DNA from: Patescibacteria group bacterium
GTDB taxonomy: Bacteria > Patescibacteriota > Minisyncoccia > UBA6257 > HR35
Direction: 5' to 3'
Assembly: GCA_030549845.1 (NCBI GenBank)
Contig: JAUQQN010000001.1
Coordinates: 30,001 to 62,000 of the forward strand
DNA length: 32,000 nucleotides
The position numbers and the translations under genes are program-made. Below the pieces are notes generated by a model, which was not told the origin of the DNA, searched no databases, and saw only the letters and a program-made list of their open reading frames with translations. Position 1 is the first letter of the stretch, and every line of letters begins with the position of its first letter. Shown here piece by piece: positions 1,838 to 23,122 of the stretch.

Positions 1838-1858
1838 TTTCGTAATCAGATTACGGAA
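1838..1858. repeat. Palindromic element, degenerate copy a (TTTCGTAATCAGATTACGGAA)
   Basis: Matches the TTTTCGTAATC-N-GATTACGAAAA family with one arm substitution. It shares the GATTACGGAAGA variant with copy b, about 105 bp away. Confidence 0.8.
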
Positions 1859-1943
1859 GACATGTTATTTTTAGAAGAAAAATTACAAAAAAAATTTTAT
1901 TTATTTAAGGGCACCTCTAGAATTTTTAAGTTCTTTTAATCAC

Positions 1944-1965
1944 TTTTCGCAATCAGATTACGGAA
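1944..1965. repeat. Palindromic element, degenerate copy b (TTTTCGCAATCAGATTACGGAA)
   Basis: Same family, same orientation and same right-arm variant as copy a. It lies in the divergent intergenic region between 761-1792 (-) and 2025-3044 (+). Confidence 0.8.
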
Positions 1966-2024
1966 GAGAGGACTTGTTAAAATAATTTTAAAATAATTTT
2001 AATGTTAAGATAATTTTAAGCAAC

Positions 2025-3044
2025 ATGGGAAATTTTGAAAGACAATTTATTTCAGGACAAAAAAGACAGGAACGAAAAAAATCAGAAATAAAAATTACAC
2101 CAGAACAAAAAGAAATTTTAGAATCTGCAGTAAAATTTGCTGAATATATAGTATCTCGTTTCCCTCAGATTGATGAAAATCGTAGGATAATAATTGAAGT
2201 CAGTGAAGAAGGGCCTACTGTCGAACTTCCCGAGATGCCGGAATTCATAGAAACAGTATTGATGATGTTGAATTACTATTTTTCCGGTTCTTTAGCTACA
2301 ATGCTTTTATCGATGGCTGAGCAATTTACTGAAATAGATGAAAGCGAACTGCCTGGCATAAAAGAAGGTCAAACCCGTACTATTCCAGAAAGTGCGCGAG
2401 AAATCTTAGCAACTTTTGCACGCCCTATAGGAGATTTAGATTATGTTCCTACAGATTTCTATGAAGGGAAAAGAGCACATGTTAGAAGTCTTTATGGAAA
2501 AGTAAGTAGTGAAGAATATCAAAAATTGTGCGCTAAGTTTTTGTGGAAAGGTGGTAGTATAGGGTTTGATGAAATTCCGGAGGAAGCATCTAAATGTCTT
2601 AAACGAGAAGCAACACAATTGAGAATATTCGTTGATCCTCTTGAATGTTATGGCGTGAAACGAGTTGCAAAAATTGTGGTTGCTGGAAAAGAATATTTCA
2701 TAGCGAGACCGGATGCTATGTTTGCTTATAAAGTTTTACATTTGTTGCAAGCGTATGAACAAAAGCCGGAAAAATTTAACGCTGATTTTAGTAAATTGTT
2801 TTCAGCTATGAAGGAAATTTACAGTGAAGACGAATTACTACAAACAGTTTTTCAAGTTCTTAAGGATTATGAAAATGCTATGGAAGCTTCTCATCGCAGA
2901 TGGCATGAAGCCCTAGGTTATGAAAAGCCATACAAATCCGAAATCCCGGCTTTTTGTAAAAAAATTTTAGGCAATCCAAGCATTACACCCGAGATTAGAT
3001 ATGTTATTGAAGAAATTCAAAAAAAATTTACCGTCAAAGAATAA
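2025..3044 (+). CDS. Hypothetical protein (orphan); weak hint of a nucleotidyltransferase-like G-S ... D-x-D pattern
   Basis: 339-aa ORF and one of the few plus-strand genes. G+C is locally higher than in the neighbours by eye. FSGSLATMLL followed by RPIGDLDYV loosely resembles the GS/DxD signature of AbiEii-type or minimal nucleotidyltransferases, but the spacing is atypical. Confidence 0.6.
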   Translation: MGNFERQFISGQKRQERKKSEIKITPEQKEILESAVKFAEYIVSRFPQIDENRRIIIEVSEEGPTVELPEMPEFIETVLMMLNYYFSGSLATMLLSMAEQFTEIDESELPGIKEGQTRTIPESAREILATFARPIGDLDYVPTDFYEGKRAHVRSLYGKVSSEEYQKLCAKFLWKGGSIGFDEIPEEASKCLKREATQLRIFVDPLECYGVKRVAKIVVAGKEYFIARPDAMFAYKVLHLLQAYEQKPEKFNADFSKLFSAMKEIYSEDELLQTVFQVLKDYENAMEASHRRWHEALGYEKPYKSEIPAFCKKILGNPSITPEIRYVIEEIQKKFTVKE

Positions 3045-3080
3045 AATCTTACATATCCTTCAGCCACCAAAAATCTACAG

Positions 3081-3103
3081 TTTTCGTAATCAGATTACGA
3101 AAA
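3081..3103. repeat. Palindromic element, perfect copy c (TTTTCGTAATCAGATTACGAAAA)
   Basis: Perfect 11+1+11 palindrome between convergent genes. It shares extended flanks (CTACAG upstream, TTTATT downstream) with copy d. Confidence 0.9.
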
Positions 3104-3151
3104 TTTATTGTAATTGTAAGTAGTTTTAAAAATAAATTTTTTGTATAAAAT

Positions 3152-4417
3152 CTATAGACCAAATTCTGCTGGAAGGTTGTTTAAGATGAATTCTTGTGGT
3201 TTTTCTGTAAAAATAATTCTTTTTCCTAAAGATTGTGCAAAACCAATTTCTAAAAGAGCTGAAGCTTCAACATATCCATCTGGATCGCAAACTATTAAAG
3301 CATCAGAGTTAATAATTGAGTTTAAATGGTAACGTTCTAATTCTAATGGAGATAAACCTTCCTTGCCGCTAAAAATTACGAATTCTTCTCCAGGATTTTT
3401 AGGTTCAATAAACCTTGGACTAAGAACTTTAACTCCAGAAGCTTCTAATTCTTTCTTTATTTTCAAAATGTAATCTAGATGTTTTCTAAAACTCCCACTT
3501 AAAGTTACATACCTAAACTCTTGTCTAATAACACCATTTATCAAATTAGAATCTGATGGAATAATTTTTAAAATCCCATACTTTTCGCATATAGCTTGCG
3601 AAATAGCCGAAAAAGCTCTTGCCCCATGCATCCATTTTGGATTATCTGGCATTAAATCTTCAAGTTCTTTTAAGGTTATCTTTTCAAAAATTTCCTTATT
3701 TTTAATTTTGTAATCATCAATTGTAATCAAAAAAGGATGATCTTCATCTTCAAATAAATTATTTTTTTGAAGTGGATAATCGGCTAACTTCATATATGTT
3801 AATTCTCCTCCTGTTAAGAAGGCAATTTCAGATTTATTATCTAATACCGGAAGTTTTGACTCCACAAAATTTACAATTTCATCTAACTTTGTCCTAGATA
3901 TATTTTCATTAATCTCAGGAAATTTAGTTAAAATTGTACCAACTCCTATGTCTAGATTCTTTCTTTCAATAGCTTCGTCGCCATACATTACTACTAATTC
4001 AGTCGTTCCTCCGCCAATGTTAATAAGCAAAATAGGTTCTTTTAAACTACATTTTCTTATTAGCGCCTTTTCAAGATAAAAATTTTCTAACTCCTGACTT
4101 ATGATATTAAAATACAACCCCGTTCTTAAAAAAACTTCATCAATAAAATCTGTTTTAGTCGCTGGAGCTAATTTTCTAAAAATTCCTGTAGCATAAATTT
4201 TTATCTGGGCATTTCTATTTTGTGCTTTTATTGCATCCAAAAGTTCGAAAAGTTCTTTTTTAGATTCTGGCGAAATTCCACCTTCAGGGTCAAAATTTTC
4301 TTTAAAAAAGATGGAACGTTTTAATAATAAACTTAATTTTTGACCAGAATATTTATAAACCTTAATAGTTGGAGAACCAATATCCAAAAGAATTTTTTCC
4401 ATATTTATAAAAAACAA
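3152..4417 (-). CDS. Fusion protein: N-terminal Ppx/GppA-like ASKHA phosphatase/ATPase domain plus C-terminal nucleoside 2-deoxyribosyltransferase-like (NDT/Rcl/YtoQ-like) domain
   Basis: ASKHA phosphate motifs LLDIGSPTIKVY and LINIGGGTTELVV, plus FLTGGELTY. The C-terminal ~130 aa show the NDT-like pattern VTLSGSF...ASGVKVLSP...SDALIVCDPDGYVEASALLEIGFAQSLGKRIIF. Confidence 0.7.
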   Translation of the reverse strand: MFFINMEKILLDIGSPTIKVYKYSGQKLSLLLKRSIFFKENFDPEGGISPESKKELFELLDAIKAQNRNAQIKIYATGIFRKLAPATKTDFIDEVFLRTGLYFNIISQELENFYLEKALIRKCSLKEPILLINIGGGTTELVVMYGDEAIERKNLDIGVGTILTKFPEINENISRTKLDEIVNFVESKLPVLDNKSEIAFLTGGELTYMKLADYPLQKNNLFEDEDHPFLITIDDYKIKNKEIFEKITLKELEDLMPDNPKWMHGARAFSAISQAICEKYGILKIIPSDSNLINGVIRQEFRYVTLSGSFRKHLDYILKIKKELEASGVKVLSPRFIEPKNPGEEFVIFSGKEGLSPLELERYHLNSIINSDALIVCDPDGYVEASALLEIGFAQSLGKRIIFTEKPQEFILNNLPAEFGL

Positions 4418-4532
4418 AATTTGATTAATTTAACAAATTGCTAATCTTTTATGAAAATTATATCAAGTTGCAAATTAAAAAGGTATAATAAATAAGCTAA
4501 AATGAAGAATGAATAATTACAAAATCCTACAG

Positions 4533-4555
4533 TTTTCGTAATCAGATTACGAAAA
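4533..4555. repeat. Palindromic element, perfect copy d
   Basis: Identical 23-mer to copy c, with the same flanks. It lies downstream of the copB stop and upstream of the 3152-4417 start. Confidence 0.9.
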
Positions 4556-4832
4556 TTTATTAGGTTATAAATGGAGAGAACAAAATAAAAAGCAACTAAA
4601 AAAGCAAAGATAATTAAAATGAAAATAATCTTTAGGTTTTAGAACCAAGAAAATTAACTTAGGACTAGTTTTATATTCTGGAGTAAAGTAAATTTGAACA
4701 ATAAGAAAAAGAGAAAAAGAATAAAATTAAAACAATTAAAAAAGCTAAATATATTGGTTTTCGCAAAGGCTTTATAAATATTTGAACATCCATTCAAATA
4801 TTATAAATTAAAAAAATTTTTCTTATCAAGTT

Positions 4833-7061
4833 TTATTTTAATCTCAAAGCATTTAAAGCAACGATTATTGTGGATAAACTCATAAAAATTGCACCTAAAG
4901 CTGGAGAGAGTAAAATTCCTTTAAAAGCTAAAATTCCAGCAGCAAGAGGAAGAGCAATAATGTTATAACCAGTTGCCCAAAATAAATTTTCTATCATTTT
5001 TTGATAAGTTTTTCTTGAAAGTTCAATTATTTTGACAATGTCTCTTGGATCATTCTTTACTAAAATTATTCCTGCAGATTCAATGGCAACATTTGTTCCG
5101 GCGCCAATAGCAACTCCAACATCAGCTTGCATAAGTGCTGGCGTATCATTAATTCCATCACCAACCATCATTACTTTAAAGCCACGCTTTTGTAATTCTT
5201 TAACTTTATTTACTTTCTCTTCTGGTAAAACTTCAGCAAAATATTCATCAATGCCAAGCTCTTTTGAAACTTTCTCAGCAACTTCTTTTTTATCACCAGT
5301 TATCATTGAAACTTTAATGCCTAATTTATGAAGTCCCTTAACTGCTTCAAAAGATTCTTTTCTTATTTCATCTTCCAAAATAATTGCTCCTAAAATATTT
5401 TTCTCTTCAATTAAATAAACTATTGTTCCGATTTCAGATAAAAGTGGTTTTTCAATACCTAATTCTTTTAATAAATTATCACCACCCAAATAATAAAGTT
5501 TACCACCAATTTTTCCCTTAACCCCTCTTCCAGGTAAATTTTCAAAATCTTCAACTTTTAAAAACTCTAATCCATCTTCTTTTGCCTTTTCCAAAATTCC
5601 TTGAGAGATAAAATGAGAAGAATATTGACTTAAAGAAGCTGCAAGTTGAAGGATTGTTAATTCTTGTGAACCTTCTCGCGAACTATTATGTGAATTTTCT
5701 CGAATATTAAATTGTCTTCCGAGGTTCGTTCCGGCGGAGGTATTTAATATCTTTTTCACTTTAAATTTTCCTGAAGTTAAGGTTCCAGTTTTATCAAATA
5801 AAACAATATCTATTTTTCTTGCAAATTCAAGCTGGAGTCTATTTCTAATTAAAAATCCATTATGAACTGCTAAAGATGTTGAAATAGCAGCAACAAGAGG
5901 AACAGCTAAACCTAAAGCATGAGGACAAGCAATAATCAAAATAGTAACTAATCTTTCTAAAGCAAAATCAAAATCTTTTTTAACTAAAAGCCAAAGAGTA
6001 AAACTTAAAAGACCAATAAAAATAGCGATAAATGTTAAATATTTTGCAAAAACATCAGCTAAAACCTGAAGTTTTGATTTTGAAGCTTGGGCTTCTTTAA
6101 TTAGTCTTTTGATACCTGCTAAAAATGTCTCTTCACCAATTTTTGTTACTTTAATTTTCAGCATTCCATCACCATTAATTGTTCCAGCAATAACTTCTGA
6201 ACCAACTTCTTTCAAAACTGGCTTACTTTCACCAGTAATCATACTTTCATTAACTTCTGATTTCCCTTCAATAACAATTCCATCAGCGGGAATTTTTCCT
6301 CCTGGTCTTACTAAAACTATATCGCCTACTTTAATTTCTTCGAGTTTTATTATTTTTATTTCTTCTTTTTTATTAACAGAATCTTCTGCATTATCAAAGT
6401 CATCCTGCGAGCGAGAATCGGGTAGGCCGTGGGTAAATGTTTGATTTAATATTATTACTTCTGCTGTATCTGGTAATAATTTCTCAATTTCTTGTAAAGC
6501 TCTCTGGGCTGAAGAAACTGATTTCATTTCAAAATAATGTCCTAAAAGCATAATCGTAATTAAACTTGTCAGTTCCCAGAAAAATTCATGTCCAATTTTA
6601 AATAAAACAGGAAAAACACTATAAACATATGCAGAAGATATGGCTAAACCAATTAAAGTCATCATCCCGGGATTTTTAGCCTTAAGTTCGCGATATGCAC
6701 CAACAAGAAAAACAAAGCCACCATAGAAAAAAATAATTGAGCCAAGAATTAAAATCAAATATTGAATTCCCTCGAAAGATGGCAATTTTATCCCAATAAA
6801 TTTTTGAAAGACATCAGAATAAAGAATGATAGGAATAGTCAAAATTAAAGAAAGCCAAAATTTATTTAAAAAATCTTCAGCACGGTGGCCATGATGTTTA
6901 TTTTGGGTCGCGAACTTCTGCGAACTTTCTCGCGAACTGATGTGAATACTACTTTCGCTAGAAACATCTTCAACTTCAATGAGTTTCATTCCACAGACAT
7001 GACAATTACCAGGCTTTTCCTGTGGTTCAATACACTGCATTGGGCAAATATATTTCTTCAT
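4833..7061 (-). CDS. copB: Copper-translocating P1B-type ATPase (CPH-motif, CopB-like) with an N-terminal CPMxxx...CxxCGM metal-binding module
   Basis: P-type motifs are present: DKTGTLT, MITGD and MVGDGINDTPAL. The transmembrane metal site is IIACPHALGLAVP (CPH). The actuator region reads ITGESKPV. The N-terminus reads YICPMQC...PGNCHVCGMKL and includes a His-rich stretch, NKHHGHR. I place the start at Met21 of the tracked ORF (7061) because a promoter/operator-like sequence sits at 7072-7102. Confidence 0.93.
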   Translation of the reverse strand: MKKYICPMQCIEPQEKPGNCHVCGMKLIEVEDVSSESSIHISSRESSQKFATQNKHHGHRAEDFLNKFWLSLILTIPIILYSDVFQKFIGIKLPSFEGIQYLILILGSIIFFYGGFVFLVGAYRELKAKNPGMMTLIGLAISSAYVYSVFPVLFKIGHEFFWELTSLITIMLLGHYFEMKSVSSAQRALQEIEKLLPDTAEVIILNQTFTHGLPDSRSQDDFDNAEDSVNKKEEIKIIKLEEIKVGDIVLVRPGGKIPADGIVIEGKSEVNESMITGESKPVLKEVGSEVIAGTINGDGMLKIKVTKIGEETFLAGIKRLIKEAQASKSKLQVLADVFAKYLTFIAIFIGLLSFTLWLLVKKDFDFALERLVTILIIACPHALGLAVPLVAAISTSLAVHNGFLIRNRLQLEFARKIDIVLFDKTGTLTSGKFKVKKILNTSAGTNLGRQFNIRENSHNSSREGSQELTILQLAASLSQYSSHFISQGILEKAKEDGLEFLKVEDFENLPGRGVKGKIGGKLYYLGGDNLLKELGIEKPLLSEIGTIVYLIEEKNILGAIILEDEIRKESFEAVKGLHKLGIKVSMITGDKKEVAEKVSKELGIDEYFAEVLPEEKVNKVKELQKRGFKVMMVGDGINDTPALMQADVGVAIGAGTNVAIESAGIILVKNDPRDIVKIIELSRKTYQKMIENLFWATGYNIIALPLAAGILAFKGILLSPALGAIFMSLSTIIVALNALRLK
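6408..6445. repeat. GC-rich 38-bp element, copy 1 (inside copB, in frame)
   Basis: GCGAGCGAGAATCGGGTAGGCCGTGGGTAAATGTTTGA matches 7433-7470 at 35 of 38 positions. It encodes QTFTHGLPDSRSQ within an insertion relative to the usual A-domain spacing upstream of GDIVLVRPG. Confidence 0.85.
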
Positions 7062-7085
7062 TCTCAAAAATATTATATCATAAAA

Positions 7086-7102
7086 ATACCCCCAGGTGGT
7101 AT
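7086..7102 (-). promoter_or_regulatory. Candidate CsoR operator overlapping the copB promoter
   Basis: The minus strand reads ATACCACCTGGGGGTAT, then TTTTATGATATAAT (a -10-like TATAAT at 7072-7077), then the ATG at 7061. This resembles the known GC-centred CsoR operators of the type TACCC-N-GGGGTA. Confidence 0.55.
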
Positions 7103-7218
7103 ATAGAGTTTTTAAAAACACTAAACTAAAATTTGAAAAAGAATGCTAAGTAAAATTAATAATAAAAAGGTTATTACTAGTCTTTGATAAGGAAAAGCCC
7201 TTCCCTGACGAAGTTGAC

Positions 7219-7674
7219 TTAATTTTTATTTAGCAAAGGTGAAATTAAAATAACCAAACCACCCAAAATTGAATCCAACAAAAATTTATCATAAACATAT
7301 GTTCGATTAAACAAACTTCCATAATCCCCAAATAAATATAAATAAAAAGAACCGATTTCATAGAAATAGAGCTTTAAAGGAAGAACAACGGAGAGAAAAG
7401 AAATTAAAATTAGTAGAAATTTTGCAAGGTTGGCGAGCGAGATTCGGGTAGGCCGTGGGCGAATGTTTGAGCCGAAGCGGAGCGGAGGCCAAACTGGCGC
7501 ATCGAGTGAGCCAACTTGCAAAATATTAGAAAGCCACCATCCTAAAGCAACACTAAAAGCTCCTATCCAAACGCCAATCGCTGATGATTTCATTCCTAAT
7601 TCTCGTGCCAATAAAGCACCTATTTCAACTCCAATAGTACATAAAGGACAATGAGCAAAAGCAAAGATTGGCAA
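7219..7674 (-). CDS. Hypothetical membrane protein with an N-terminal CxxC (AHCPLC)
   Basis: 151-aa ORF in the copper gene string, with several hydrophobic helices. Its central loop is encoded by a GC-rich patch (7430-7520) that contains copy 2 of the 38-bp element. Confidence 0.6.
   Translation of the reverse strand: MPIFAFAHCPLCTIGVEIGALLARELGMKSSAIGVWIGAFSVALGWWLSNILQVGSLDAPVWPPLRFGSNIRPRPTRISLANLAKFLLILISFLSVVLPLKLYFYEIGSFYLYLFGDYGSLFNRTYVYDKFLLDSILGGLVILISPLLNKN
7433..7470. repeat. GC-rich 38-bp element, copy 2 (inside 7219-7674, in a different reading frame from copy 1)
   Basis: GCGAGCGAGATTCGGGTAGGCCGTGGGCGAATGTTTGA. Here it is translated as SNIRPRPTRISLA. Confidence 0.85.
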
Positions 7675-7700
7675 AAAAAATTAAAACTATGATTATTATT

Positions 7701-8195
7701 TTATATTTCCATAAATAATCCTTGATCTTTACCATCTTTGACTGAATGAATTCTGAATGGATAAAATTTAATTCCTGGCATTCCCGGTGAACCAGAAGGC
7801 ATTTCTGGAAGAGCAATGCCATTAATTTTTGGCTTTTCAGTTAAAAGTTTTTCAATTGCTTCAACTGGAATATGGCCTTCAACAAAATAATTGTTCAAAA
7901 AAACTGTATGACAAGACCATAAATTATAAGGAATATTATTTTGCCTCTTAATATTTTCAAGTTCTTCATCAGAAACTTCTCTAACTTCAACTTTAAAGCC
8001 ATTTGCTTTTAAATAATTTGCGTATTGGGCACAACAATTGCAGTTAGGGGATTTATAAATAACTGCTGACATACCAGAAAATTTAGTTCGTTTTGAAGAT
8101 TGATTTTTTATTAAAACCATAATTGACCCAACTAAAAGAAAACCTATTATTAACCCTAAAATTATACTTTTGTTTTTCATTTTTATAATCCACAA
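7701..8195 (-). CDS. DUF411 (CopG-like) metal-binding protein, membrane-anchored
   Basis: YKSPNCNCCAQYANYLKANGFKVEV ... WSCHTVFLNNYFVEGHIPVEAIEKLL ... LPEMPSGSPGMPG closely matches the DUF411 signature (CxCC, SCHT, EGHVP, PGMPxGSPGM). The protein has an N-terminal signal anchor. Confidence 0.85.
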   Translation of the reverse strand: MWIIKMKNKSIILGLIIGFLLVGSIMVLIKNQSSKRTKFSGMSAVIYKSPNCNCCAQYANYLKANGFKVEVREVSDEELENIKRQNNIPYNLWSCHTVFLNNYFVEGHIPVEAIEKLLTEKPKINGIALPEMPSGSPGMPGIKFYPFRIHSVKDGKDQGLFMEI

Positions 8196-9271: not shown

Positions 9272-9284
9272 CTTTATATATTAT

Positions 9285-10084: not shown

Positions 10085-10098
10085 AGGTTAATTATACC

Positions 10099-10110
10099 AT
10101 ACCCGGGTAT
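10099..10110 (-). promoter_or_regulatory. Candidate CsoR operator / csoR-operon promoter
   Basis: Perfect palindrome ATACCCGGGTAT. The minus strand reads ATACCCGGGTATGGTATAATTAACCTATG, placing a TATAAT box about 6 nt before the csoR ATG. That spacing suggests a leaderless or near-leaderless transcript. Confidence 0.55.
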
Positions 10111-10165: not shown

Positions 10166-10519
10166 ATGAAAATAATTTATACTATTGGGCATTCAACAAG
10201 AAAATTAGAAGAATTTATTGAGCTTTTAAAGAATTTTAAAATTGAAGTTTTAATAGACATTCGTCATTTTCCCCATTCAAAACATAATCCTCAATTTAAC
10301 AAAGAAATTTTAGAAAAAGAATCACCGAAAGAAGGAATAGATTATCTTTGGCTTGAAGAACTTGGCGGATTTAGAAAGGGAGGTTACTTAGCTTACACTG
10401 AAACACAAGATTTTAAAGAAGGATTAAGAAAACTTACAAAAATTACTGAAGAAAAAGTAACCAATTTTCGTAATCAGATTACGAAAATTTTAGGAATTCA
10501 TTGCAATTTTAGGTTTTAA
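10166..10519 (+). pseudogene. DUF488-family gene, 3'-truncated at a palindromic element
   Basis: MKIIYTIGHSTRKLEEFIELLKNFKIEVLIDIRHFPHSKHNPQFNKE...LGGFRKG...FKEGLRKL matches the TIGHS-type DUF488 N-terminal two-thirds. After ...EEKV the frame reads through palindrome copy e (NFRNQITK) and stops. The conserved C-terminal segment of the family is absent. Confidence 0.65.
10465..10487. repeat. Palindromic element, perfect copy e (extends to a 27-bp palindrome at 10463-10489)
   Basis: TTTTCGTAATCAGATTACGAAAA, located at the point where similarity to DUF488 ends. Confidence 0.9.
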
Positions 10520-10550: not shown

Positions 10551-11597
10551 TTACTCTATCTCGATAATGCTCTTTTGGATACCAAATTTGTTTTCAATTT
10601 CCCTGAACCTTTCCATAAGTTTGTTGCTATCCATTTGCATAATTCTTGGCAAAACTTGGGATTTTAGATATTTCTCAGCCTCTAAATCTATCAATTCCTG
10701 CAACTTTTTCAACGCATTAAGTTTGTAAGGGTCTTCATCATTTTCAAGAATTTTCCAAAATACCTTATTGTACTGTGCTAATTCATCAGCTATTATCAAT
10801 AAGGCAATATACTGTGCTTTCTCATAAAGACTTAAAGGGTTTTGCTGTTCTTTTGTAGTTCTGTTTTCTGCTATTCTATTTAAAGAATACTCTAATTGCT
10901 GGTTGAATATTTCGTTATCTTTAGGGTTGAATATAAATTGGACAATATGGCTAGCAATTTCGGTTTTAATTTGACTTATCAATCCATCATCTCGCTCTAA
11001 ATGAGTTAATTCGTGAACAATAGAGGCAGCAAGGTGCTTTTGTTGGCTATCTATTTCTTTTTTATTTTTAGCCTTAATTGCTTCTATTAAAGGCATTAAT
11101 TCTCGGTAACTAATCCTAATCCCCCCGATATCTCCAGCTTCCATACCAAAATGCTTACTTCCTTCAATAACAAACCCTTTTGGTTTGTATCGCCAGTTGT
11201 AAAAATGAATTGCGCTATTGTAGGTTTCGATAAGCAGTTTATTAACCTCCTCAATAATTTCAGGCTGCTCGGTTAAGTCTTTCCATGCCTCTTGAGGTAT
11301 TGTTTCGTAGGTATAAAGCAACTCCTCAGATTTGTTATAAATCCAAATTACATGGTTCAGTCGTTTTTCTTGCTCATTTTCTATTTCATACAAATAAACA
11401 GCATCTCTATTTAGAGAAATAATGTTATGAATGTTTGCTTGAGCTAGCGAGTTTGTAGTATAATTCTCCCAATATTCTTTAAATCTTTTATCAATTCTAG
11501 CAATACCTTCTATTCGTTCTCTCCTCTGCCTGGCTAATTCTTCCCTCTCTTCTTCAGATAACTTTTTAAATCTTGATTCAAATATTTCGGGATTCAT
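10551..11597 (-). CDS. Hypothetical protein with an HExxH motif (putative zinc metallopeptidase-like)
   Basis: 348-aa ORF. IVHELTHLERDD is the only motif I recognise. G+C is locally elevated compared with the neighbours. It is flanked by palindrome copies e and f. Confidence 0.55.
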   Translation of the reverse strand: MNPEIFESRFKKLSEEEREELARQRRERIEGIARIDKRFKEYWENYTTNSLAQANIHNIISLNRDAVYLYEIENEQEKRLNHVIWIYNKSEELLYTYETIPQEAWKDLTEQPEIIEEVNKLLIETYNSAIHFYNWRYKPKGFVIEGSKHFGMEAGDIGGIRISYRELMPLIEAIKAKNKKEIDSQQKHLAASIVHELTHLERDDGLISQIKTEIASHIVQFIFNPKDNEIFNQQLEYSLNRIAENRTTKEQQNPLSLYEKAQYIALLIIADELAQYNKVFWKILENDEDPYKLNALKKLQELIDLEAEKYLKSQVLPRIMQMDSNKLMERFREIENKFGIQKSIIEIE

Positions 11598-11632
11598 CTT
11601 AATAAAAAATAATTTTATAAAGATTTCTCAAT

Positions 11633-11654
11633 TTTTGTAACCTGATTACGAAAA
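11633..11654. repeat. Palindromic element, degenerate copy f (TTTTGTAACCTGATTACGAAAA)
   Basis: The right arm, GATTACGAAAA, is intact and the left arm has decayed. The central base is T. Confidence 0.7.
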
Positions 11655-12966: not shown

Positions 12967-13158
12967 AATTTTACATTTACAATGCTATAGCATTTTAAAT
13001 TTACAGCCCTTTCAGTAAGCATAGTTTTTTAAATGTGGGCTCATTTTTGAAGGTAGGCTAAGGATTTTAAATTTACAATGCTATAGCATTTTAAATTTAC
13101 AATTCTTTTTAAATAAGCATATTCTTCGAAGGTGGGTTAGAATTTTTCAGAAGCTCCA
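12967..13158. repeat. Tandem direct repeat of two ~96-bp units, each with the core TTTACAATGCTATAGCATTTTAAATTTACA
   Basis: The 30-nt core occurs identically at 12976-13005 and 13072-13101 and contains the 14-bp perfect palindrome AATGCTATAGCATT. The unit tails are about 70% similar (..TAAGCATA..T..GTGGG..). Confidence 0.8.
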
Positions 13159-15430: not shown

Positions 15431-16020
15431 AAAAATTCTCTTTCTAAAATTTGGCGAATCGGATTTTTATAATAAAGTTTATATCTCATTTTACCTTTTT
15501 CTTTGCGATATAATTCTTGACCACTAACCCTAAATAATCCGTGGTAATTTTTAATCTCTAATAAAATTATTCCTTTAGGCCCTATTAGTATTCCATCAAT
15601 ATCACCTGTCTCTATATTGGATAATTCATAATTTTTAATATAATTGGATAATTCATAATTTTTAATATAAACATATTTATCACTCAAATGTCTTTTTAAA
15701 AATTTTATAACCCTATTTTCTCCTTCTTCGCCTTTTATCAAAGAGTCTAATTTATCAATTAAACTATCTAAATACTCAAAACCTCCTAAAATAGAAAATA
15801 ATAAAAATACAATTAAAAAGAAAATTGCTATACTGGAAAAGAATTTTTTGACAGGCTCTAAGAATTTAAGAAATTCTGGTAATGGTACTAATGAAAAAAC
15901 GCCTGTAAAAACAAAAATAAGCAAAAATACTAATAAAAGTAAAAGAATAATTGTTGGTTTATTGCCAATTTTTTCAAGTTCTTTGGCGAGGTATGATTTT
16001 TGATATTCTATTATCCTCAT
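15427..16020 (-). CDS. NERD (nuclease-related domain) protein with N-terminal TM helices, interrupted by a frameshift
   Basis: GEEGENRVIKFLKRHL...GDIDGILIGPKGIILLEIKNYHG...NPIRQ matches the NERD pattern. The ORF ends immediately after a homopolymer run. Confidence 0.75.
   Translation of the reverse strand: MRIIEYQKSYLAKELEKIGNKPTIILLLLLVFLLIFVFTGVFSLVPLPEFLKFLEPVKKFFSSIAIFFLIVFLLFSILGGFEYLDSLIDKLDSLIKGEEGENRVIKFLKRHLSDKYVYIKNYELSNYIKNYELSNIETGDIDGILIGPKGIILLEIKNYHGLFRVSGQELYRKEKGKMRYKLYYKNPIRQILEREFF
15616..15669. repeat. Perfect 27-bp tandem duplication inside the NERD ORF
   Basis: ATTGGATAATTCATAATTTTTAATATA occurs twice back to back. It is in frame and duplicates YIKNYELSN. Confidence 0.9.
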
Positions 16021-16130
16021 TTATAAAAATCAAATATAAACATATTTTTATCTCATAAATTGACTTTAAAAAAATTTTTATTTTGATACATTGATTATCG
16101 TAGTTTTTATCTCGATTAATTTATTAAACA

Positions 16131-19022
16131 TCACAACTTGCCTTTTGTAAAATTTACAATGTTTTCTAAGATCTTATCAAAATTTTCAAACCAATAATCT
16201 TTATAGCCGGAAGATCTAACTCTATCTTCATCTTCTGTGTATAGAAAACAAAAAATATAACAATTTAGATTTTTGTATTGGAATTTTTTAGGCTTATTTT
16301 CTTCTTCGAAAATTTCTTTATATCCTAAAACTTTATCTTCAAAATTCCTATAACTTGTACTCTTAGGATCAACAAAAACTATATAATAATCATTCCCTCT
16401 CTTAAGCCAAAAAATAAAGTCTGGTTTGAAGTTTTCAAACTGGGATTTTTCATAATTATAGTAAGGAATATAGACATCATCTAAATTTTCATCAATTTTG
16501 CTAAATAACCACCAATCAAAATTATTGAATTTACTTTCTTTACTAGCAATATATTTTTCTAACTCTTCTATAAATTTAATCTCGCTTTTAGTTTTTATTA
16601 TATGTTTTATATATTCCACTCTCTCATTTCTTTGCAAAATCAAAGGAAGATAATAATGTTGAGGAATGTATTTTAAATCTAATTCTCTGCCATATACTGA
16701 AGTTTTTTTATTTTCAAATACATTCTTTATTAAATTTTCAAAATTTTTAAAGTCTGCTTCTTCTAATTCAACAATAATTTTTTTATAATGCTTTATCTCA
16801 TCCTTTAATTCTTCAATATTTTCTAATTCTCTTAATTCTTTATTCCAGAAATTAAAAATATTATTCAAAACTACTACGGGATTTTTGACAATTGACTGAT
16901 CTACAAATTTGTAAAACTGATTTTCTCTTTCAAAAGAATTTTTAACAAATTTCAAAAGTTTAGGCTCAACATTGTAATTAACTAACAAAATTCTTTCATC
17001 TTTAATAAATTCGTAAAATTCTCTAACCAAACTCAATTCATCTCGTGATAATTTAAACCTTGATTTTACTTCACTTTCTTCAAATAACTTTTTATCTGCA
17101 AGCTTGTATTTAGGAATTAAGAGAATTTTATCTTTTATAATTTCTTCATTTTTAAATAGACGAAGTTCTTTTTTAGCTTTTGTTTCTTTTTTAAACTCTT
17201 CTGTTTCTTTTAAGATCGTCTCCAATGCTGATTTGTTAGTGCCAAATATAAATAAAGTTTCTATAGAAGGCACAAAATCTTTAATTTTTTGAAAAACATC
17301 CTTAAACTCTGGATCTAAATCTATATATATTCCTCTTTTCCTTTGATTTTTAACAGGTTCAATTCTTACCCCTCTCCCTATTGACTGCAAAACAAATTTC
17401 CTAGCATTTTTCTGCGTGCCAATATTTATAAACATTATTATATTCGGCCTATTGGAATCCCATCCTTCATAAAATACTCTTGAACCAAGTAAGATGTTTA
17501 CTGAAGATTCTTCATCATTTACCCTTTCAAAAAATCCTTCATTTTCGAATGTATGATTTACTTCAAAATTCAATAACTCATTTTTAAGCCAATTTGGCAT
17601 TTGTCCGGTTTTACTAAGACAAAAATGAGAATCTGATGTTTTTAATTTAAAAGCAACTTCACTATTATTTGAAGGATTAAAAGATATTTCTATTTCTCCA
17701 GGTTTTTCCGAATTAAACACATATCTTAAAATATCTCGGTAATTTATTGATTGTAAAAGTTGGTCATCAAATTCAATTTCCTCGTTTGGCAGTATATATT
17801 CCTTTTTATTATTTAATTCTTCTATAATTTCATTTTTAGCCTCTTCAATAATTTTTTCTTCTACTTTTCCTTTCCCTATCTTCTCTAATTCTTTAAATAT
17901 TTTCTTTAAATCAGCTAATTCATTATCAACAGAGTTTACTAATACTAAAATTAATGGCTTATGATATAAATTGGTTTTGATTTTTCTAATCTCTTCAAGA
18001 TTCTTTTTAATATATGTCAAAAGAATTAATGCTTTAAGAATAATTTTTTGTTTAGTTAAATCATCAAAATCTTCTTTATTTCTAAAAGCATCAATATCTC
18101 TTTCGAAAATATAAATTTTCTTACCGAATCCTTTTTCAATAAAACTTGAAAGATTAAATTCATAAACGCAAGTTACTAAATCTCTAATATCATCAAAAGT
18201 CGCTGAAAAATTAAAAAGAAAACCATTTTGTGAAAGAATAGAATAGATATGTTGTCTTTTTGATTCATCTTTGTCGCCTTTATGAGCTTCGTCCAAAATT
18301 AAATACCATTTACCTTCATTATAATAATTTCTAAAATCTATAATTTTTTCTTTCTCTTCATCGCTAAACAAATCTGATCTATAATAAAAAACAATATTTT
18401 CTTTAAAAAGTTTTAAAGAAGATTTTATTTTCTCATAATCCTTAAAATTACAAAGTTCAATTCTATTTTGTATATTAAACTTATTATATTCATCTATGTG
18501 CTCTTGAAATTGCTTTATTAAATCTTCCCTATGAGTCAGAAATAAAATGTCATAATCAGGTATTTCTCTTCTTTGAATCAAATTTTTGAGAATTTCTATA
18601 AGTTTAATAATCACCAAAGTCTTTCCGCTCCCAGTTGCCATCCAAAAACTCATCCTATTAATGAAATGCTTAAAACTTATCTCGTTATTTTCTAACTCGT
18701 AATAATCAAAAATAAATTTATGCTTTCTTTCTTCCTTGTATTTATGAGAAACTTCTTGAGGATTTAAGCCCCAATCTAAATATTTTTCATACAAAATTTT
18801 CTTTCTTCGCTCATTAATTTCTAAATTTTCATTTTCAAAATAGTCATACTCTTTATCATAGTAGAACCATAAAATTTTTAAAGCATTCTCTAGAGCTTCT
18901 TTTTGAAAATCATAAAGTTTTTTATTCTCAGAGAAATTATCTAAATCAAAATTCTGCCAATTAAAAGATAATTGATTTTTATCAATATTTTCAGCTATTT
19001 TTTGAAGAATTAACTTTGCCAT
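16131..19022 (-). CDS. res: Type III restriction enzyme Res subunit (SF2 helicase plus C-terminal PD-(D/E)XK nuclease)
   Basis: Walker A is WMATGSGKTLV. Motif II is LILDEAHKG. Motif III is FNFSATF. Motif VI is QSIGRGVRI. The C-terminal FKPDFIFW...IVFVDPKS is a nuclease-like motif. Confidence 0.88.
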   Translation of the reverse strand: MAKLILQKIAENIDKNQLSFNWQNFDLDNFSENKKLYDFQKEALENALKILWFYYDKEYDYFENENLEINERRKKILYEKYLDWGLNPQEVSHKYKEERKHKFIFDYYELENNEISFKHFINRMSFWMATGSGKTLVIIKLIEILKNLIQRREIPDYDILFLTHREDLIKQFQEHIDEYNKFNIQNRIELCNFKDYEKIKSSLKLFKENIVFYYRSDLFSDEEKEKIIDFRNYYNEGKWYLILDEAHKGDKDESKRQHIYSILSQNGFLFNFSATFDDIRDLVTCVYEFNLSSFIEKGFGKKIYIFERDIDAFRNKEDFDDLTKQKIILKALILLTYIKKNLEEIRKIKTNLYHKPLILVLVNSVDNELADLKKIFKELEKIGKGKVEEKIIEEAKNEIIEELNNKKEYILPNEEIEFDDQLLQSINYRDILRYVFNSEKPGEIEISFNPSNNSEVAFKLKTSDSHFCLSKTGQMPNWLKNELLNFEVNHTFENEGFFERVNDEESSVNILLGSRVFYEGWDSNRPNIIMFINIGTQKNARKFVLQSIGRGVRIEPVKNQRKRGIYIDLDPEFKDVFQKIKDFVPSIETLFIFGTNKSALETILKETEEFKKETKAKKELRLFKNEEIIKDKILLIPKYKLADKKLFEESEVKSRFKLSRDELSLVREFYEFIKDERILLVNYNVEPKLLKFVKNSFERENQFYKFVDQSIVKNPVVVLNNIFNFWNKELRELENIEELKDEIKHYKKIIVELEEADFKNFENLIKNVFENKKTSVYGRELDLKYIPQHYYLPLILQRNERVEYIKHIIKTKSEIKFIEELEKYIASKESKFNNFDWWLFSKIDENLDDVYIPYYNYEKSQFENFKPDFIFWLKRGNDYYIVFVDPKSTSYRNFEDKVLGYKEIFEEENKPKKFQYKNLNCYIFCFLYTEDEDRVRSSGYKDYWFENFDKILENIVNFTKGKL

Positions 19023-19057
19023 TTATTAAATTTTAAAATTAGGATTTATTGTTGCTG

Positions 19058-19834
19058 TCATATAATTAATTTTTCTAAAATATTCCTATCTAATCTCTTT
19101 AAATATTCATTAACATAAAAATAGTCTGGTTCTTGTTTAATCGCTCTTGTTATTATTCTAAAAGCTTTATCTAAGCCTATATCTTCTTTCAAAACTTGAT
19201 TGACATTGAAAAGAATTAAACCTATTCCAAATCTTAAACATAAAGATTCTAATCTACTTAAATCAACCTGAGATATTGTCTCTGGTAATACTAAATAAAC
19301 TTTATGACTAAATAATTTATAAGAACAAGCTTGACCAAAAGCAATAATTGGCTGATTAGTATCTATTTTAATTTCAGCACTAATTATTTCTGGTAATGGT
19401 TCAATTATTGATGGCTTCGAGATTTTATAAATTCCTAAAACATCTGGAGTACCCCATCTATCTCTAAACACACTACCTCCTAATGGTATAGTTTTTGTAC
19501 ATCCTTCTAATTCTTGTACTAAATAATCAGCAAATTTTTGATAGATTGTCTCTTCTCTAATTTTTGTTTCTTCTTCAAATATTTTTTCTTCCTTAAGATT
19601 TTCATAAAATTTCCTTAAAATATAGAGCCCTCTTTCTGGTTTTATTACATCTTTGATTTTTTTATCTAAATTCCATATTTCCCATTGAATAAGTTTTAAT
19701 TTAATTTCTGGATATTCTTCGTAAATTTTATTTACTAATTTAGAATACCTTATTCCTTGAGGTGAATTTTCTAAAATCTCCAAAGCTTTTTCTCTTATTG
19801 CTTCCTGTTTTTGTTTATGGGTTAGTTTTTTCAT
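19058..19834 (-). CDS. Hypothetical protein: N-terminal winged-helix-like region plus PD-(D/E)xK-like core
   Basis: 258-aa ORF between mod and res. The N-terminus (ILENSPQGIRYSKLVNKIYEEYP...ERGLYILRK) looks wHTH-like. The central region, E...WGTPDVLGIYKI...IISAEIKID...FGQACSY, fits an E/D...ExK...Q nuclease-fold pattern. The function is inferred only. Confidence 0.45.
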   Translation of the reverse strand: MKKLTHKQKQEAIREKALEILENSPQGIRYSKLVNKIYEEYPEIKLKLIQWEIWNLDKKIKDVIKPERGLYILRKFYENLKEEKIFEEETKIREETIYQKFADYLVQELEGCTKTIPLGGSVFRDRWGTPDVLGIYKISKPSIIEPLPEIISAEIKIDTNQPIIAFGQACSYKLFSHKVYLVLPETISQVDLSRLESLCLRFGIGLILFNVNQVLKEDIGLDKAFRIITRAIKQEPDYFYVNEYLKRLDRNILEKLII

Positions 19835-20504
19835 TTTTATAATTTAAATACTTCAAAAGATATATAAAATCCTCTTTAACACCAACAATTTCACTAATAC
19901 TCATAGGGGTAATATTTTTTTTCATAACAATATGTAAGGATAATGTATGATTACTAGGTTTAATTTTCATTGTTTTTATTTGAAAATATTTTAATATTTC
20001 ATTAAACATTTTTTGAATATAATCAATTATCTCTTTTAATTCATCTATGATGTCATTAAATTTAATAACTGATAATATATCTACCGCAGATAATTTTTTA
20101 TTGATATCTATATGGGCTACAACCTTATTTACAGTTTTTAAAATCTCATTAATTTCATTGTTTTTATATTTATCAATTTCTGATTCAATTTCTTTTAATT
20201 TCTGCACATCTTCCAATAAATTTTTGTGTTGGAATTCTTTAGAGAAATAGATTAGGGGAAAATATAAAGAATATACATCATCTCTTTCTCTTTTATCGAA
20301 AATTTTTCTTATTTCTAATAAAGTTATTAAAAGAGTGTTGATAACAAACAAAATAAAAAAATTTCTAAATTTTTTTATTAGAATATGATTCCTATATTCT
20401 TCTAGTACATTTAAATTTGTTTTAACAAAAGCAATTTCTTTTGCCAAAATATCTTTCCACTCTTCCAGTTTTTTAATTGCATTTTTATTTAAAATTTCTT
20501 CCAT
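19815..20504 (-). CDS. Hypothetical protein, possibly HEPN-like (AbiU2-type layout) with a non-canonical N-x4-H motif
   Basis: 229-aa all-helical-looking ORF. It has a hydrophobic helix, FFILFVINTLLITLLEI. ILKTVNKVVAHIDINKK sits where AbiU2/HEPN families carry R-x4-6-H. There is a 4-nt gap to the mod stop and a 20-nt overlap with the next gene. Confidence 0.35.
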   Translation of the reverse strand: MEEILNKNAIKKLEEWKDILAKEIAFVKTNLNVLEEYRNHILIKKFRNFFILFVINTLLITLLEIRKIFDKRERDDVYSLYFPLIYFSKEFQHKNLLEDVQKLKEIESEIDKYKNNEINEILKTVNKVVAHIDINKKLSAVDILSVIKFNDIIDELKEIIDYIQKMFNEILKYFQIKTMKIKPSNHTLSLHIVMKKNITPMSISEIVGVKEDFIYLLKYLNYKNEKTNP

Positions 20505-20508
20505 CTTT

Positions 20509-23064
20509 TCACCACCAAATTAATTTTTTAATTTCTGGCAAATGTTTTTCTAATTGATTTAAACTTACTTTTTCTCCATCTTCAAATTCAACTTCATTTT
20601 CTGAAATTTTTTTAAGCCACTTGCCTTTTAAACAAGAAAGTGTTTCAGCAATATCTACATTTGAATAAATTTTACTAAAATCAATTTTTATCTTGTTATT
20701 TTCATAATTAATTTCTAAGGCTTCTAACATTTTAGGGTCAGCCATAAATATATAATTAAAATCTTCTTTAAATAATTTAGGTGATTCTTTTTCAGTCAAA
20801 TATTTTGCTTTATCCAAAATATCTGGAAATTGCTCAAGTTCATAATATTTGAAAAATCCACCTGCTTTATCTTCGTTATATTTTTCCTTAACATCCTTTT
20901 CTTTTGATATTCCAAATTTATCATAAGCTAAAACCTTTTTCATTCTTGGTAAAACTACTGTATAAAAATGCTCTCCCATCTCTACACCAATCCATTTTCT
21001 TTTTAGTTTATGTGCTACTGCTGTTGTTGTGCCACTTCCTAAAAAGAAATCCATAACTAAATCGTCTTCGTTGGAAGTAGATTCTATGACACGTTTGAGA
21101 AGGATTTCAGAGTTTTCGGTAGGGAAACCAGTTGATTTGGATATAACGTAAGTGTAGCCTAAAATATCTGTCCAGTCATTATTTACAGGAACCTCTCGTC
21201 TTAAATAGAAAGCATCAAACTCCCTAGAGCTACATTTTTGACAACAGAGAATCTTTAGATTAGGATCAGTATTTTGATATTCCCATCCACAATTCTTACA
21301 CACGATTTTTATATTTCCTTTACTTATTTCAATTTCTATTCTCTCTTGAGAAAATTGCCAATGAGTTCCTTTTGGTGCTTTAATAATCATTCCCCAAAAT
21401 ACCCGTGTTGGTTCTCCTCGTTCCCCAGGGAAAAACATTATTGTCCATTCTAGCTTTTCGTCAGGTTTAGGTCTTAAAGGTATAGTTATGGTTGCTTTTT
21501 GTTTATTCACGGAAAAAAATATTAAGCTTTCTGTATCATTTTCAAATTTATTTCTCTCTTTACTCTCAGTTCTCTTTCCTTTTCTTACTATTATCTCATT
21601 CCTAAAATTCTCCTTTCCAAAAATCTCATCCATCAAAGGTCTTACAATCCAATTCCCATTGTAATCACATCTAACAAAAATACTTCCTGTATCTTTTAAC
21701 AACTCTCTTGCAAGCCTTAGTCTATTTTCAAGCATTGTAGCCCAGGTGGAGTCTTTGTATTTTACAGAATAGAAATAATCTGCTTCTTGTTCTTTATTAA
21801 ATGGTGGATCGATATAAATAGTTTGCACTTTTTCTTTAAATTTTGGTAAGATTGTATTTAATGCTTGATAATTTTCGCTCTTTATTAACCAACCATCTAA
21901 ATTTTCATCTAAATTATCAAAAAGGCTTAAAATTTCAAGTTCTAAATCTTTAAAGTATTTTGTATCTATAGGTAAAAATTGATATTTTTTGTTTAAATTT
22001 TTGCCACTTAAATCTTTTTGAATGATTTTATTTTTGTCAAAATCTTCATCAATTATATTTAATTCTTTCCATTCTTTTATTTGTTCACTAAAATTTTTAT
22101 GATTTATTATCTTTTCAATAATTTGGATTCCCTTTTCATGATTTTGTTTTACTAATCTATCTAAAGTGATAACATAATTCGAATTTAAAACAAATCTTGG
22201 TTTATTCCATATTTTTACAAGTTCATCCTCAAATTTAGAGACAAAATCAATAATAAATTCTGCGCATTCCCTTAACTTATTTATCTGATCGATTCTTTCT
22301 GGAGTATAATCTTGGTTAGTTGAGAAAAATTTATTATAGATAAATAGTTTTAATTGTTCGGTTAAAAAAGCTTTTGCATTTTTATGAATAAAATAATCTA
22401 TTTCTGATTGTTGTTCAAATTTTTTGAATGCTTTTTCTAAAATTTCTTCTGTTAACTTGATATTCTTGTTTTTAAATTTATTTTTTAATTTTTTGAGAAT
22501 TTCATCTATTTTTGTTGTTTTCCCTTTTTCTGAATAATAAACTTTAAAAACAAATCTTTCTTCTGATGTTTGACTTTCATCTAATTCATAAATAAGCTCT
22601 CTTTTCTCATTTGCTTTTTTAGCTTCAAGAGTTGAAACATCAAAGTAAAATCTAAATTCTTTATTATTTTCTTGTAAGACAACTTCTAATGATTTATATA
22701 TTCTATCGGTTTTAAGATAATAAAGATCACGGGTTTTCCAAAATAAAATTATGTCTTCTTTATCTGTATAAACCCTGTCATAAATTTGATGATAGTATGG
22801 AGTATTAACAAAATAGATTGATCCTGATTCTGAAAAATATCGAGAAAAGAAAGTATAAATTTTTTCAAAAAGTTCTTCCTTAAAATTTGGGTATTTCTTT
22901 AAAATTTCTTTTATTTTTTGTTCGAGCTTAGGTTTAAAAACTTCATCGTAATATTTCTTTTTAATTTTCATCAAATTTATATAGCCACCAGTGCCCTCAA
23001 TCTCAGCCCCAACAAACATATTAGTTAAAAGATTGTAAAATTTTTGCTCATAATCTTGTCTCAT
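20509..23064 (-). CDS. mod: Type III-like DNA methyltransferase Mod subunit (beta-class N6A/N4C amino-methyltransferase) with a ~400-aa N-terminal extension
   Basis: Motif IV, IYIDPPFN, lies about 250 aa before motif I, VMDFFLGSGTTTAVAHKL. That order defines the beta class. A Cys4 ribbon, CKNCGW...CCQKCSS, sits in the putative target-recognition region. Confidence 0.88.
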   Translation of the reverse strand: MRQDYEQKFYNLLTNMFVGAEIEGTGGYINLMKIKKKYYDEVFKPKLEQKIKEILKKYPNFKEELFEKIYTFFSRYFSESGSIYFVNTPYYHQIYDRVYTDKEDIILFWKTRDLYYLKTDRIYKSLEVVLQENNKEFRFYFDVSTLEAKKANEKRELIYELDESQTSEERFVFKVYYSEKGKTTKIDEILKKLKNKFKNKNIKLTEEILEKAFKKFEQQSEIDYFIHKNAKAFLTEQLKLFIYNKFFSTNQDYTPERIDQINKLRECAEFIIDFVSKFEDELVKIWNKPRFVLNSNYVITLDRLVKQNHEKGIQIIEKIINHKNFSEQIKEWKELNIIDEDFDKNKIIQKDLSGKNLNKKYQFLPIDTKYFKDLELEILSLFDNLDENLDGWLIKSENYQALNTILPKFKEKVQTIYIDPPFNKEQEADYFYSVKYKDSTWATMLENRLRLARELLKDTGSIFVRCDYNGNWIVRPLMDEIFGKENFRNEIIVRKGKRTESKERNKFENDTESLIFFSVNKQKATITIPLRPKPDEKLEWTIMFFPGERGEPTRVFWGMIIKAPKGTHWQFSQERIEIEISKGNIKIVCKNCGWEYQNTDPNLKILCCQKCSSREFDAFYLRREVPVNNDWTDILGYTYVISKSTGFPTENSEILLKRVIESTSNEDDLVMDFFLGSGTTTAVAHKLKRKWIGVEMGEHFYTVVLPRMKKVLAYDKFGISKEKDVKEKYNEDKAGGFFKYYELEQFPDILDKAKYLTEKESPKLFKEDFNYIFMADPKMLEALEINYENNKIKIDFSKIYSNVDIAETLSCLKGKWLKKISENEVEFEDGEKVSLNQLEKHLPEIKKLIWW

Positions 23065-23099
23065 TAATTTAATTTTATCACTTTTTAGGAAGGATCAGT

Positions 23100-23122
23100 T
23101 TTTCGTAATCTGATTACGAAAA
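23100..23122. repeat. Palindromic element, perfect copy g (central base T)
   Basis: TTTTCGTAATCTGATTACGAAAA, 36 nt upstream of the mod start and downstream of the stop of 23162-23638. Confidence 0.9.

Follow-up and report, generated by a model that had tools for sequence, protein, structure and literature searches.

A 23-bp palindrome repeated in the intergenic DNA of a Patescibacteria bacterium: a lineage-specific and possibly REP-like family

The small, streamlined genomes of the candidate phyla radiation (CPR, or Patescibacteria) are poorly characterised with respect to repeats, regulators and terminators. CPR bacteria are thought to be reliant on DNA uptake, and in genomes with DNA uptake sequences (DUS) or uptake signal sequences (USS) single copies far outnumber inverted pairs. 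Another class of short palindromic sites is used by tyrosine recombinases, where two arms surround an asymmetric crossover region of 6–8 bp. The pdif sites that bracket gene modules on Acinetobacter plasmids are XerC/D sites of 28 bp, and attC sites measure 57–141 bp. Repetitive extragenic palindromes (REPs) are short (∼20–40 nt), repeated, hairpin-forming and species-specific, and are often found past genes or between convergent genes (PMC3337134). Finally, a Zur site with half-sites spaced 7-3-7 has been predicted in Desulfovibrio (PMC545781). Here we describe a 23-bp palindrome that recurs in a stretch of 32,000 nucleotides from a Patescibacteria group bacterium (contig JAUQQN010000001.1, positions 30,001 to 62,000 of the forward strand), called the window in the following. 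All results on the source genome refer to this window plus 1,745 bp to its left on an overlapping Logan contig (L028), together ∼34 kb.

The palindrome has an 11-1-11 architecture and is fully symmetric save for a central A or T. The window contains exactly seven sites that match TTTTCGTAATC-N-GATTACGAAAA (search pattern TTTTCGTAATCNGATTACGAAAA) with up to 3 mismatches allowed, and four of the seven, at 3081, 4533, 10465 and 23100, are perfect. Seven sites at these places had been predicted from the letters alone; the sites of the degenerate copies hold, although their coordinates were off by one base. Two further copies on L028 bring the total to nine. Chance, which the original prediction had dismissed, is indeed excluded: dinucleotide shuffles give an expectation of 0.01 sites, and seven sites were reached in 0 of 100 shuffles. 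The 15-bp core by itself recovers the same seven sites, against 0.51 expected. There are no sites with 4–6 mismatches and matches with 7 mismatches occur at background frequency, so the family is discrete. Isolated half-sites are not enriched, and the element is present solely as the complete dyad. This is a real palindrome family, far beyond chance, with the following copies.

Copies a0 and a1, L028 59–81 and 1593–1615: a0 with 1 mismatch, a1 with 2 mismatches; 0.15 and 1.7 kb left of the window.
Copy a, 1837–1859: GTTTCGTAATCAGATTACGGAAG, 3 mismatches; in a divergent region, 45 bp upstream of the minus-strand ATG at 1792 and 7 bp upstream of a promoter-like TTGAAA-18-TATAAT.
Copy b, 1944–1966: TTTTCGCAATCAGATTACGGAAG, 3 mismatches; 59 bp upstream of the plus-strand ATG at 2025.
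Copy c, 3081–3103: perfect; between convergent genes, 37 bp past the stop of a 339-aa gene and 49 bp past the stop of a Ppx-like gene.
Copy d, 4533–4555: perfect; 131 bp upstream of the conserved Ppx start (ATG 4402), ∼65 bp upstream of an extended −10 (TGATATAAT) and 278 bp past the CopA stop.
Copy e, 10465–10487: perfect; between convergent gene ends, 64 bp past the stop of a 348-aa gene; supplies the final codons (FRNQITK) of a C-terminally truncated DUF488 open reading frame (ORF).
Copy f, 11632–11654: TTTTTGTAACCTGATTACGAAAA, 2 mismatches; 35 bp upstream of the minus-strand ATG at 11597 and 158 bp from the upstream stop; read on the minus strand, its mutated arm is GTTACA, with a −10-like TAAAAT 18 nt downstream.
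Copy g, 23100–23122: perfect, with central T; 40 bp past the stop of a Gmad2-domain gene and separated by 36 bp from the ATG of the type III methylase gene (mod) that follows, abutting the −35 of an extended −10 (TGATAAAAT).

Eight of the nine copies are intergenic, and the ninth forms the 3′ end of the truncated ORF. The conserved unit is the 23-mer alone; flanks are unrelated apart from those of c and d. Four copies are identical across the 22 specified bases, and the C and G flanking the centre, which cannot pair in a hairpin, are invariant in all nine. Among the variants there are ∼9 independent substitutions (11 substituted positions in total); none is compensatory, and all of them break or wobble pairs. 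As DNA the palindrome folds into a hairpin of −7 kcal/mol (z ∼ −5), which answers the folding check suggested in the original prediction. The RNA hairpins reach −7.8 to −11.2 kcal/mol, with z from −2.6 to −4.7 for the perfect copies, while copy b and several variants lose the fold. No known RNA family matched at the Rfam gathering thresholds.

The relations between copies argue for descent of one from another. The flanks of c and d, which had been noticed before for a common CTACAG upstream and TTTATT downstream, share 14 of 20 positions (background P ∼5e-4) and are the sole outlier among 72 pairwise flank comparisons; c with its flanks (3068–3109) matches d. Copies a and b have two identical derived substitutions in common (P ∼0.004): the sites at 1837 and 1944 both carry GATTACGGAAG(A), a shared variant that was also part of the earlier description. 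It follows that copying, and not independent evolution, links the members of at least two adjacent pairs. In addition, the copies are clustered, since all five of the leftmost intergenic gaps hold one versus 3 of 16 gaps elsewhere (Fisher P ∼0.003). Judged from these sequences, new copies derive from existing ones, preferentially from those nearby, and land in intergenic DNA at transcription-unit boundaries.

The family persists between strains and is absent from more distant relatives. A strain from a different sample (L033), 98.6% identical over 1,584 bp, keeps in place the two copies that can be checked, e and f; there is one single-nucleotide polymorphism next to the centre of e, and f is identical. 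In relatives with Ppx-like proteins of 78–84% identity (L037, L038, L040, L041 and L043), and in those with 348-aa proteins of 57–62% identity (L029–L032 and L034–L036), no site was found at up to 6 mismatches in the 1.2–20 kb of sequence examined per relative. Gene order around the orthologs is different in every relative, and some of them have unrelated G+C-rich hairpins in the equivalent slots. As an example, L031 has a canonical A-tract/stem/T-tract terminator (AAAATCCGCCTTGGGCGGATTTT, at 7810) after the ortholog. In the slot of palindrome d, L043 (1–70) and L037 (upstream of 7722) hold agtccgcc-ttcg-ggcggact and gcccggcc-tttg-gccgggc, and repeat families of their own may also exist in other lineages at the Ppx boundary. 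A comparison of related genomes for presence or absence of the flanked genes had been proposed; in this comparison it is the copies that are absent beside the orthologs in the relatives examined, and the flanked genes include conserved CPR families. It is worth noting that many public Ppx-bearing contigs are only 1.44–1.51 kb long. Assembly breaks caused by palindromes in other species were considered and dropped as an explanation, as the contig of the 84% relative (L043) has no palindrome at its ends.

Public collections were scanned as well, covering 185,579 representative genomes (596 Gb), the JGI metagenome collection and IMG/VR, none of which holds the source genome. These scans gave single, dispersed hits to the core of 19 or 17 bases in roughly chance numbers, one of them inside a coding region (L024, where it encodes FRNQITK). 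The full 23-mer was found only once, as a perfect, intergenic copy on a contig of a hot-spring metagenome-assembled genome (MAG; L004) that may be a near relative of the host. A further, unrelated contig (L015) has a copy with 2 mismatches that precedes, by 40 bp, a gene for a small Phage_integrase-family recombinase (188 aa, E 3e-24). Just upstream of this copy, at 440–490, is an unrelated inverted repeat with 11-bp arms (ATACGTTATAT...ATATAACGTAT), and both repeats precede the tyrosine recombinase gene, which is followed by a Dcm methylase gene.

The reading that we favour, tentatively and with somewhat less than even confidence, is that of a palindromic repeat family which is REP-like, restricted to this lineage, and spread by copying with a bias towards nearby sites. 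The palindromes would be young repetitive extragenic palindromes, and "REP-like" is used here as a descriptive term only. The element is short, repeated, intergenic, hairpin-forming and lineage-specific, with descent from copy to copy, and in this descriptive sense it is a REP. Since the Ppx-like and 339-aa proteins are members of families conserved in the CPR (561 and 83 homologs) and are not cassettes, the repeats came to the genes and not vice versa. Two of the four perfect copies (c and e) lie in convergent gaps, which have no promoter, and the purely divergent promoter region holds the most degenerate copies (a and b). We infer that copying exploits the hairpin or the palindrome. A single-strand transposase of the IS200/IS605-RAYT type, which recognises hairpins and would be encoded in another part of the genome, could carry it out; alternatively, it could be gene-conversion-like recombination between copies. 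Any cellular role would be secondary and different for each copy, for instance as a 3′ RNA hairpin, as a weak plus-strand terminator at c, d and e, or as a borrowed −35-like hexamer at f.

A number of observations weigh against a REP-like family. Among the ORFs scanned in the 34 kb there is no Y1/HUH transposase or RAYT, recombinase or regulator (Pfam, NCBIfam, PADLOC, PHROGs), and none of the unannotated proteins near the copies resembles a transposase, a recombinase or a regulator. REP/RAYT-like mobile hairpins were among the ideas first put forward for these repeats, and of all readings this one fits best, but the RAYT/IS200-like gene that it calls for is not encoded in the 34 kb. REP families run to tens or hundreds of copies in a genome, with a single-copy RAYT gene (for a HUH/Y1 transposase) that copies flank. 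The single full copy in the public scans also counts here: if the L004 MAG is a near relative, it argues against hundreds of copies. The two strains show no insertion or absence polymorphism of copies, a comparison that covers the e–f region only. The palindrome is perfect and A+T-rich, unlike the imperfect, G+C-rich classical REPs, which often come in inverted doublets. A REPIN doublet was rejected, as the asymmetry of a and b, the sole doublet, is in direct orientation and the region forms no long hairpin (1830–1973, z −1.6, equalled by 15 of 200 shuffles). The identity of four of the nine copies over 22 bases could reflect strong selection for protein binding, and copies a, f and g adjoin or overlie the −35 position. 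A hidden transposase family among the flanking genes was looked for and rejected, because the four ORFs of 339–349 aa are unrelated (19–22% identity). No report of such a repeat family in Patescibacteria turned up in the papers searched.

The position of the copies relative to gene ends could suggest that they are primarily transcription terminators or RNA 3′-end hairpins that share one sequence. Seven of the nine lie downstream of a stop codon, and for five (a0, a1, c, e and g) the distance is 37–64 bp; f and d are farther away, and a and b have no upstream gene. That five copies sit just past gene 3′ ends had been seen before and is true, but most of them are equally just upstream of the next gene. 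The RNA hairpin energies given above speak for this, TTTATT or TTTTAG follows c, d and e on the plus strand, and in relatives the equivalent positions are taken by ordinary hairpin terminators. The proposal that the T4-stem-A4 shape works as a bidirectional terminator nevertheless fails on polarity. It is the reverse of the A-tract/stem/T-tract order seen in the L031 terminator, and it puts the U run ahead of the hairpin on either strand. The stem has just three G–C pairs, and a terminator consensus scan calls none of the copies. On the strand of the upstream gene, which is mostly the minus strand, no U-tract follows a1, c, d, f or g, and only ∼3–4 of the nine copies have a U-rich tail there. 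Copies a and b have nothing upstream to terminate, b and several variants cannot fold, and compensatory changes are lacking. Moreover, identical 23-mers are neither needed for termination nor explained by it, and a primary role of this kind is very doubtful.

The same copies can be viewed from the side of the promoters, in which case they would be operators, that is, binding sites of a dimeric protein encoded elsewhere, such as a Fur-family or Zur-like regulator, controlling the neighbouring genes. Each monomer would read TCGTAAT, with half-sites spaced 7-3-7, and the proposed targets are the genes for a 343-aa membrane protein, the 339-aa nucleotidyltransferase (NTase)-like protein, the Ppx-like protein and the 348-aa HExxH protein, as well as the type III mod operon. 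Five copies (a, b, d, f and g) precede the starts at 1792, 2025, 4402, 11597 and 23064 by 35–131 bp, with a, f and g at the −35 as described above. As first predicted, two of them (a and b) are in a divergent promoter region, and they are spaced 107 bp apart (∼10 helical turns). The restriction to full dyads, the conservation of the unpairable C and G, and the lack of compensatory substitutions all speak for a protein-binding site, and TCGTAAT is the half-site of the Gram-positive Zur consensus TAAATCGTAATnATTACGATTTA. Against this, the perfect copies c and e are at places without a promoter, while a and b in the promoter region are the weakest. The distance from copy to −10 is inconsistent, ranging from copies overlapping the −35 to one ∼65 bp upstream, and no copy is found upstream of orthologs in relatives at 57–84% identity. 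The neighbouring genes are not a zinc regulon, and neither a Fur-family protein nor another candidate regulator is encoded in the window. The 7-3-7 spacing is unlike that of every characterised Zur box. The palindromes show neither the 7-1-7 repeat of Fur-family/Zur sites nor conserved positions at metal-gene promoters. Twenty-two conserved positions hold far more information than a regulon in a ∼1-Mb genome requires, and the shared flanks of c and d, together with the derived substitutions of a and b, indicate copying and not independent evolution of sites.

The window also offers an operator for comparison. Boxes of the CsoR type are found at 10099–10110 (ATACCCGGGTAT, overlapping the −10 of csoR) and at 7086–7102 (ATACCACCTGGGGGTAT, upstream of copA), and L031 has a similar box at 7897 (CATATACCCCCCGGGGGTATATG) before its csoR homologue. 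With boxes that overlap the −10 or lie just upstream of it, and with recurrence in a relative, a genuine operator behaves unlike the palindromes. Taken together, an operator function is on the unlikely side, though it is the strongest of the alternatives.

Another possibility is suggested by what lies between the copies. Single genes are bracketed by the pairs a0/a1, b/c, c/d and e/f, and in the case of c and d there are 42-bp near-identical direct repeats around one gene. The palindromes would then be core sites of a site-specific recombination system, similar to pdif or attC arrays, that shuffles, inserts or deletes one-gene modules (333 aa; SfsA plus 343 aa; 339 aa; Ppx; 348 aa). Accessory and defence genes abound in the region, and in L015 a 2-mismatch copy precedes the integrase-family gene. 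The truncation of the DUF488 gene, which had been pointed out earlier and is confirmed by a Pfam match that stops at profile position 89 of 121, ends exactly at e. The lost end is absent and not displaced, as it would be for a deletion ending in a site. Insertion of a module that split the gene was rejected, because the lost C-terminus does not turn up beyond the module, past copy f. A recombination system is nonetheless decidedly unlikely. No recombinase is encoded in the 34 kb, and the symmetric 11-1-11 site is without an asymmetric 6–8-bp crossover region. The Ppx-like and 339-aa genes, both bracketed by copies, are conserved in the CPR and are not mobile cassettes, and the sole module that can be compared between strains is unchanged in L033. 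The L015 match is a single site of a kind expected a few times by chance in the collections scanned. Integron attC sites, CRISPR, TIGR arrays and parS were also set aside by inspection, since their size, spacing and sequence do not fit, and an uptake signal of the DUS/USS type was rejected for lack of enriched half-sites. The original prediction had kept several of these readings open, and we consider this to have been right.

The host DNA has a G+C content of 22–35% in the window, and nearly all genes are on the minus strand. They include a copper operon (CopA, DUF411, CsoR), a type III restriction-modification operon with an AbiU2-HEPN gene, NERD and PD-(D/E)XK nucleases, transporters, and several proteins without a family match. 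A 258-aa ORF in the restriction-modification operon has only a marginal winged-helix match (E 0.001, below the Pfam cutoff). The Ppx/GppA-like protein between c and d has hundreds of homologs at 68–84% identity, and where their source is named it is mostly labelled Minisyncoccia, Parcubacteria or Patescibacteria. Homologs of the 348-aa protein adjoin bacterial RpoD, DnaG, EF-Tu, EF-G and a 198-aa L3. TATAAT-like −10 boxes lie 7–12 nt from start codons, with practically no Shine-Dalgarno sequences (e.g., at 1793–1810, 10085–10100 and 23065–23082). Together these homolog neighbours and promoters point to a CPR bacterium with short or absent leaders, and they suggest that leaderless or very-short-leader mRNAs are used in the host. 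An AAGGTC motif precedes several starts (140 aa, SnoaL, EncFtn), and also the Ppx orthologs in L037 and L043, by 20–35 nt.

Some related records carry the label "Candidatus Aenigmatarchaeota archaeon" (L004, JAWAJM010000061.1; L041, JAWAZZ010000013.1; MEM5782596.1), and their proteins are from 79% to at least 90% identical to those of the host. L004 has a textbook TTGACA-17-TATAAT promoter and a GGAGGTGA Shine-Dalgarno sequence, and L041 has archaeal-looking neighbours. An archaeal origin is less likely, given the bacterial RpoD, DnaG, EF-Tu and L3 beside the homologs and the TATAAT promoters of the window. The labels are probably binning or labelling errors; the records could be CPR contigs mis-binned in DPANN bins, or could reflect gene exchange between CPR and DPANN.

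Two of the proteins next to copies deserve a comment. The 339-aa protein (2025–3044) belongs to a conserved CPR family without a Pfam match, and its AlphaFold model, although confident (predicted local distance difference test score 89.9), has no significant match in the PDB. The weak matches are nucleotidyltransferase folds (ANT(2''), MenT, TglT), and the family has the invariant residues GS...DxD...D (G88-S89, D137, D139 and D204). On the basis of the modelled fold and these residues, it may be a novel NTase-like enzyme. One homolog is annotated as "Trp operon repressor", but a role of the 339-aa protein as a DNA-binding partner of the palindrome was rejected in view of the lack of a significant PDB match, the nucleotidyltransferase-like fold and the invariant residues. 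The 348-aa protein (10551–11597), also without a family match, has an HExxH motif (HELTH), and in L031 its homolog adjoins a CsoR-thioredoxin-ABC-CobW cluster. From the motif and this neighbourhood, it may be a metal-dependent enzyme.

The window contains other repeats as well. A 142-nt direct repeat (94% identity) is found at 27443–27584 and 31362–31503; the right copy is the 3′ end of a UPF0047 gene (31113–31502), the left one a stray fragment in the gap between a 104-aa ORF and SIMPL, which points to a past duplication or rearrangement. Two 45-nt repeats at 12968–13012 and 13064–13108, 96 bp apart and 91% identical, lie in a 560-bp gap upstream of the gene for a 349-aa protein. Both hold a perfect 14-bp palindrome, AATGCTATAGCATT (about 12981–12994 and 13077–13090), and they look like a candidate paired operator of another regulator. 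Lastly, a 38-nt G+C-rich repeat (GCGAGCGAGAATCGGGTAGGCCGTGGGTAAATGTTTGA, 92% identical), out of character for DNA of 27% G+C, occurs at 6407–6444 in the 5′ part of copA and at 7433–7470 in a 151-aa ORF.

If 23-bp palindromes do copy themselves in this genome, they would represent a case of REP-like intragenomic DNA from the CPR, and they would raise the question of the mobiliser in a genome with few enzymes. A more far-reaching view is that the 23-mer is the recognition site of a Patescibacteria protein, either a recombinase or transposase specific for the hairpin or dyad, by which one-gene modules are built and reshuffled, or a regulator of the Fur kind whose Zur-type box has a 7-3-7 spacing without precedent. 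We think this unlikely; if true, there would be a functional, protein-operated array in a type of genome thought to be nearly free of repeats and regulators. A protein-bound site would also give a rare and very precisely defined entry point to gene regulation or genome plasticity in a lineage that is uncultured. On the practical side, the shared flanks of c and d coincide with the ends of short-read contigs (L028, which ends one base beyond c, and a Ppx contig of 1,462 bp), and the copies could serve as strain markers.

Each of the known systems shares some features with the palindromes. Paired Neisseria DUS and Haemophilus USS terminators are likewise identical short inverted pairs at gene ends, but single half-sites of the palindrome are not enriched. 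Like pdif and attC arrays, the palindromes are repeated sites that bracket units of one or a few genes amid metal-resistance and defence genes; unlike them, they are 23 bp long, have no asymmetric spacer and no recombinase gene within 34 kb, and bracket core-like CPR genes among others. The Gram-positive Zur box (TAAATCGTAATnATTACGATTTA, PMC545781) has the same inverted TCGTAAT/ATTACGA half-site, A/T-rich flanks and a total of 23 bp. The palindromes differ from it in a half-site gap of 3 nt instead of 1, in not lying beside zinc genes, in their absence from relatives, and in the convergent setting of some copies. In the case of the REP/REPIN-RAYT systems of Proteobacteria, the differences are that the element described here is perfect and A+T-rich, without an asymmetric head or a REPIN doublet, whereas the two agree in size, extragenic location, palindromic structure, species specificity, sites at gene ends and descent from copy to copy.

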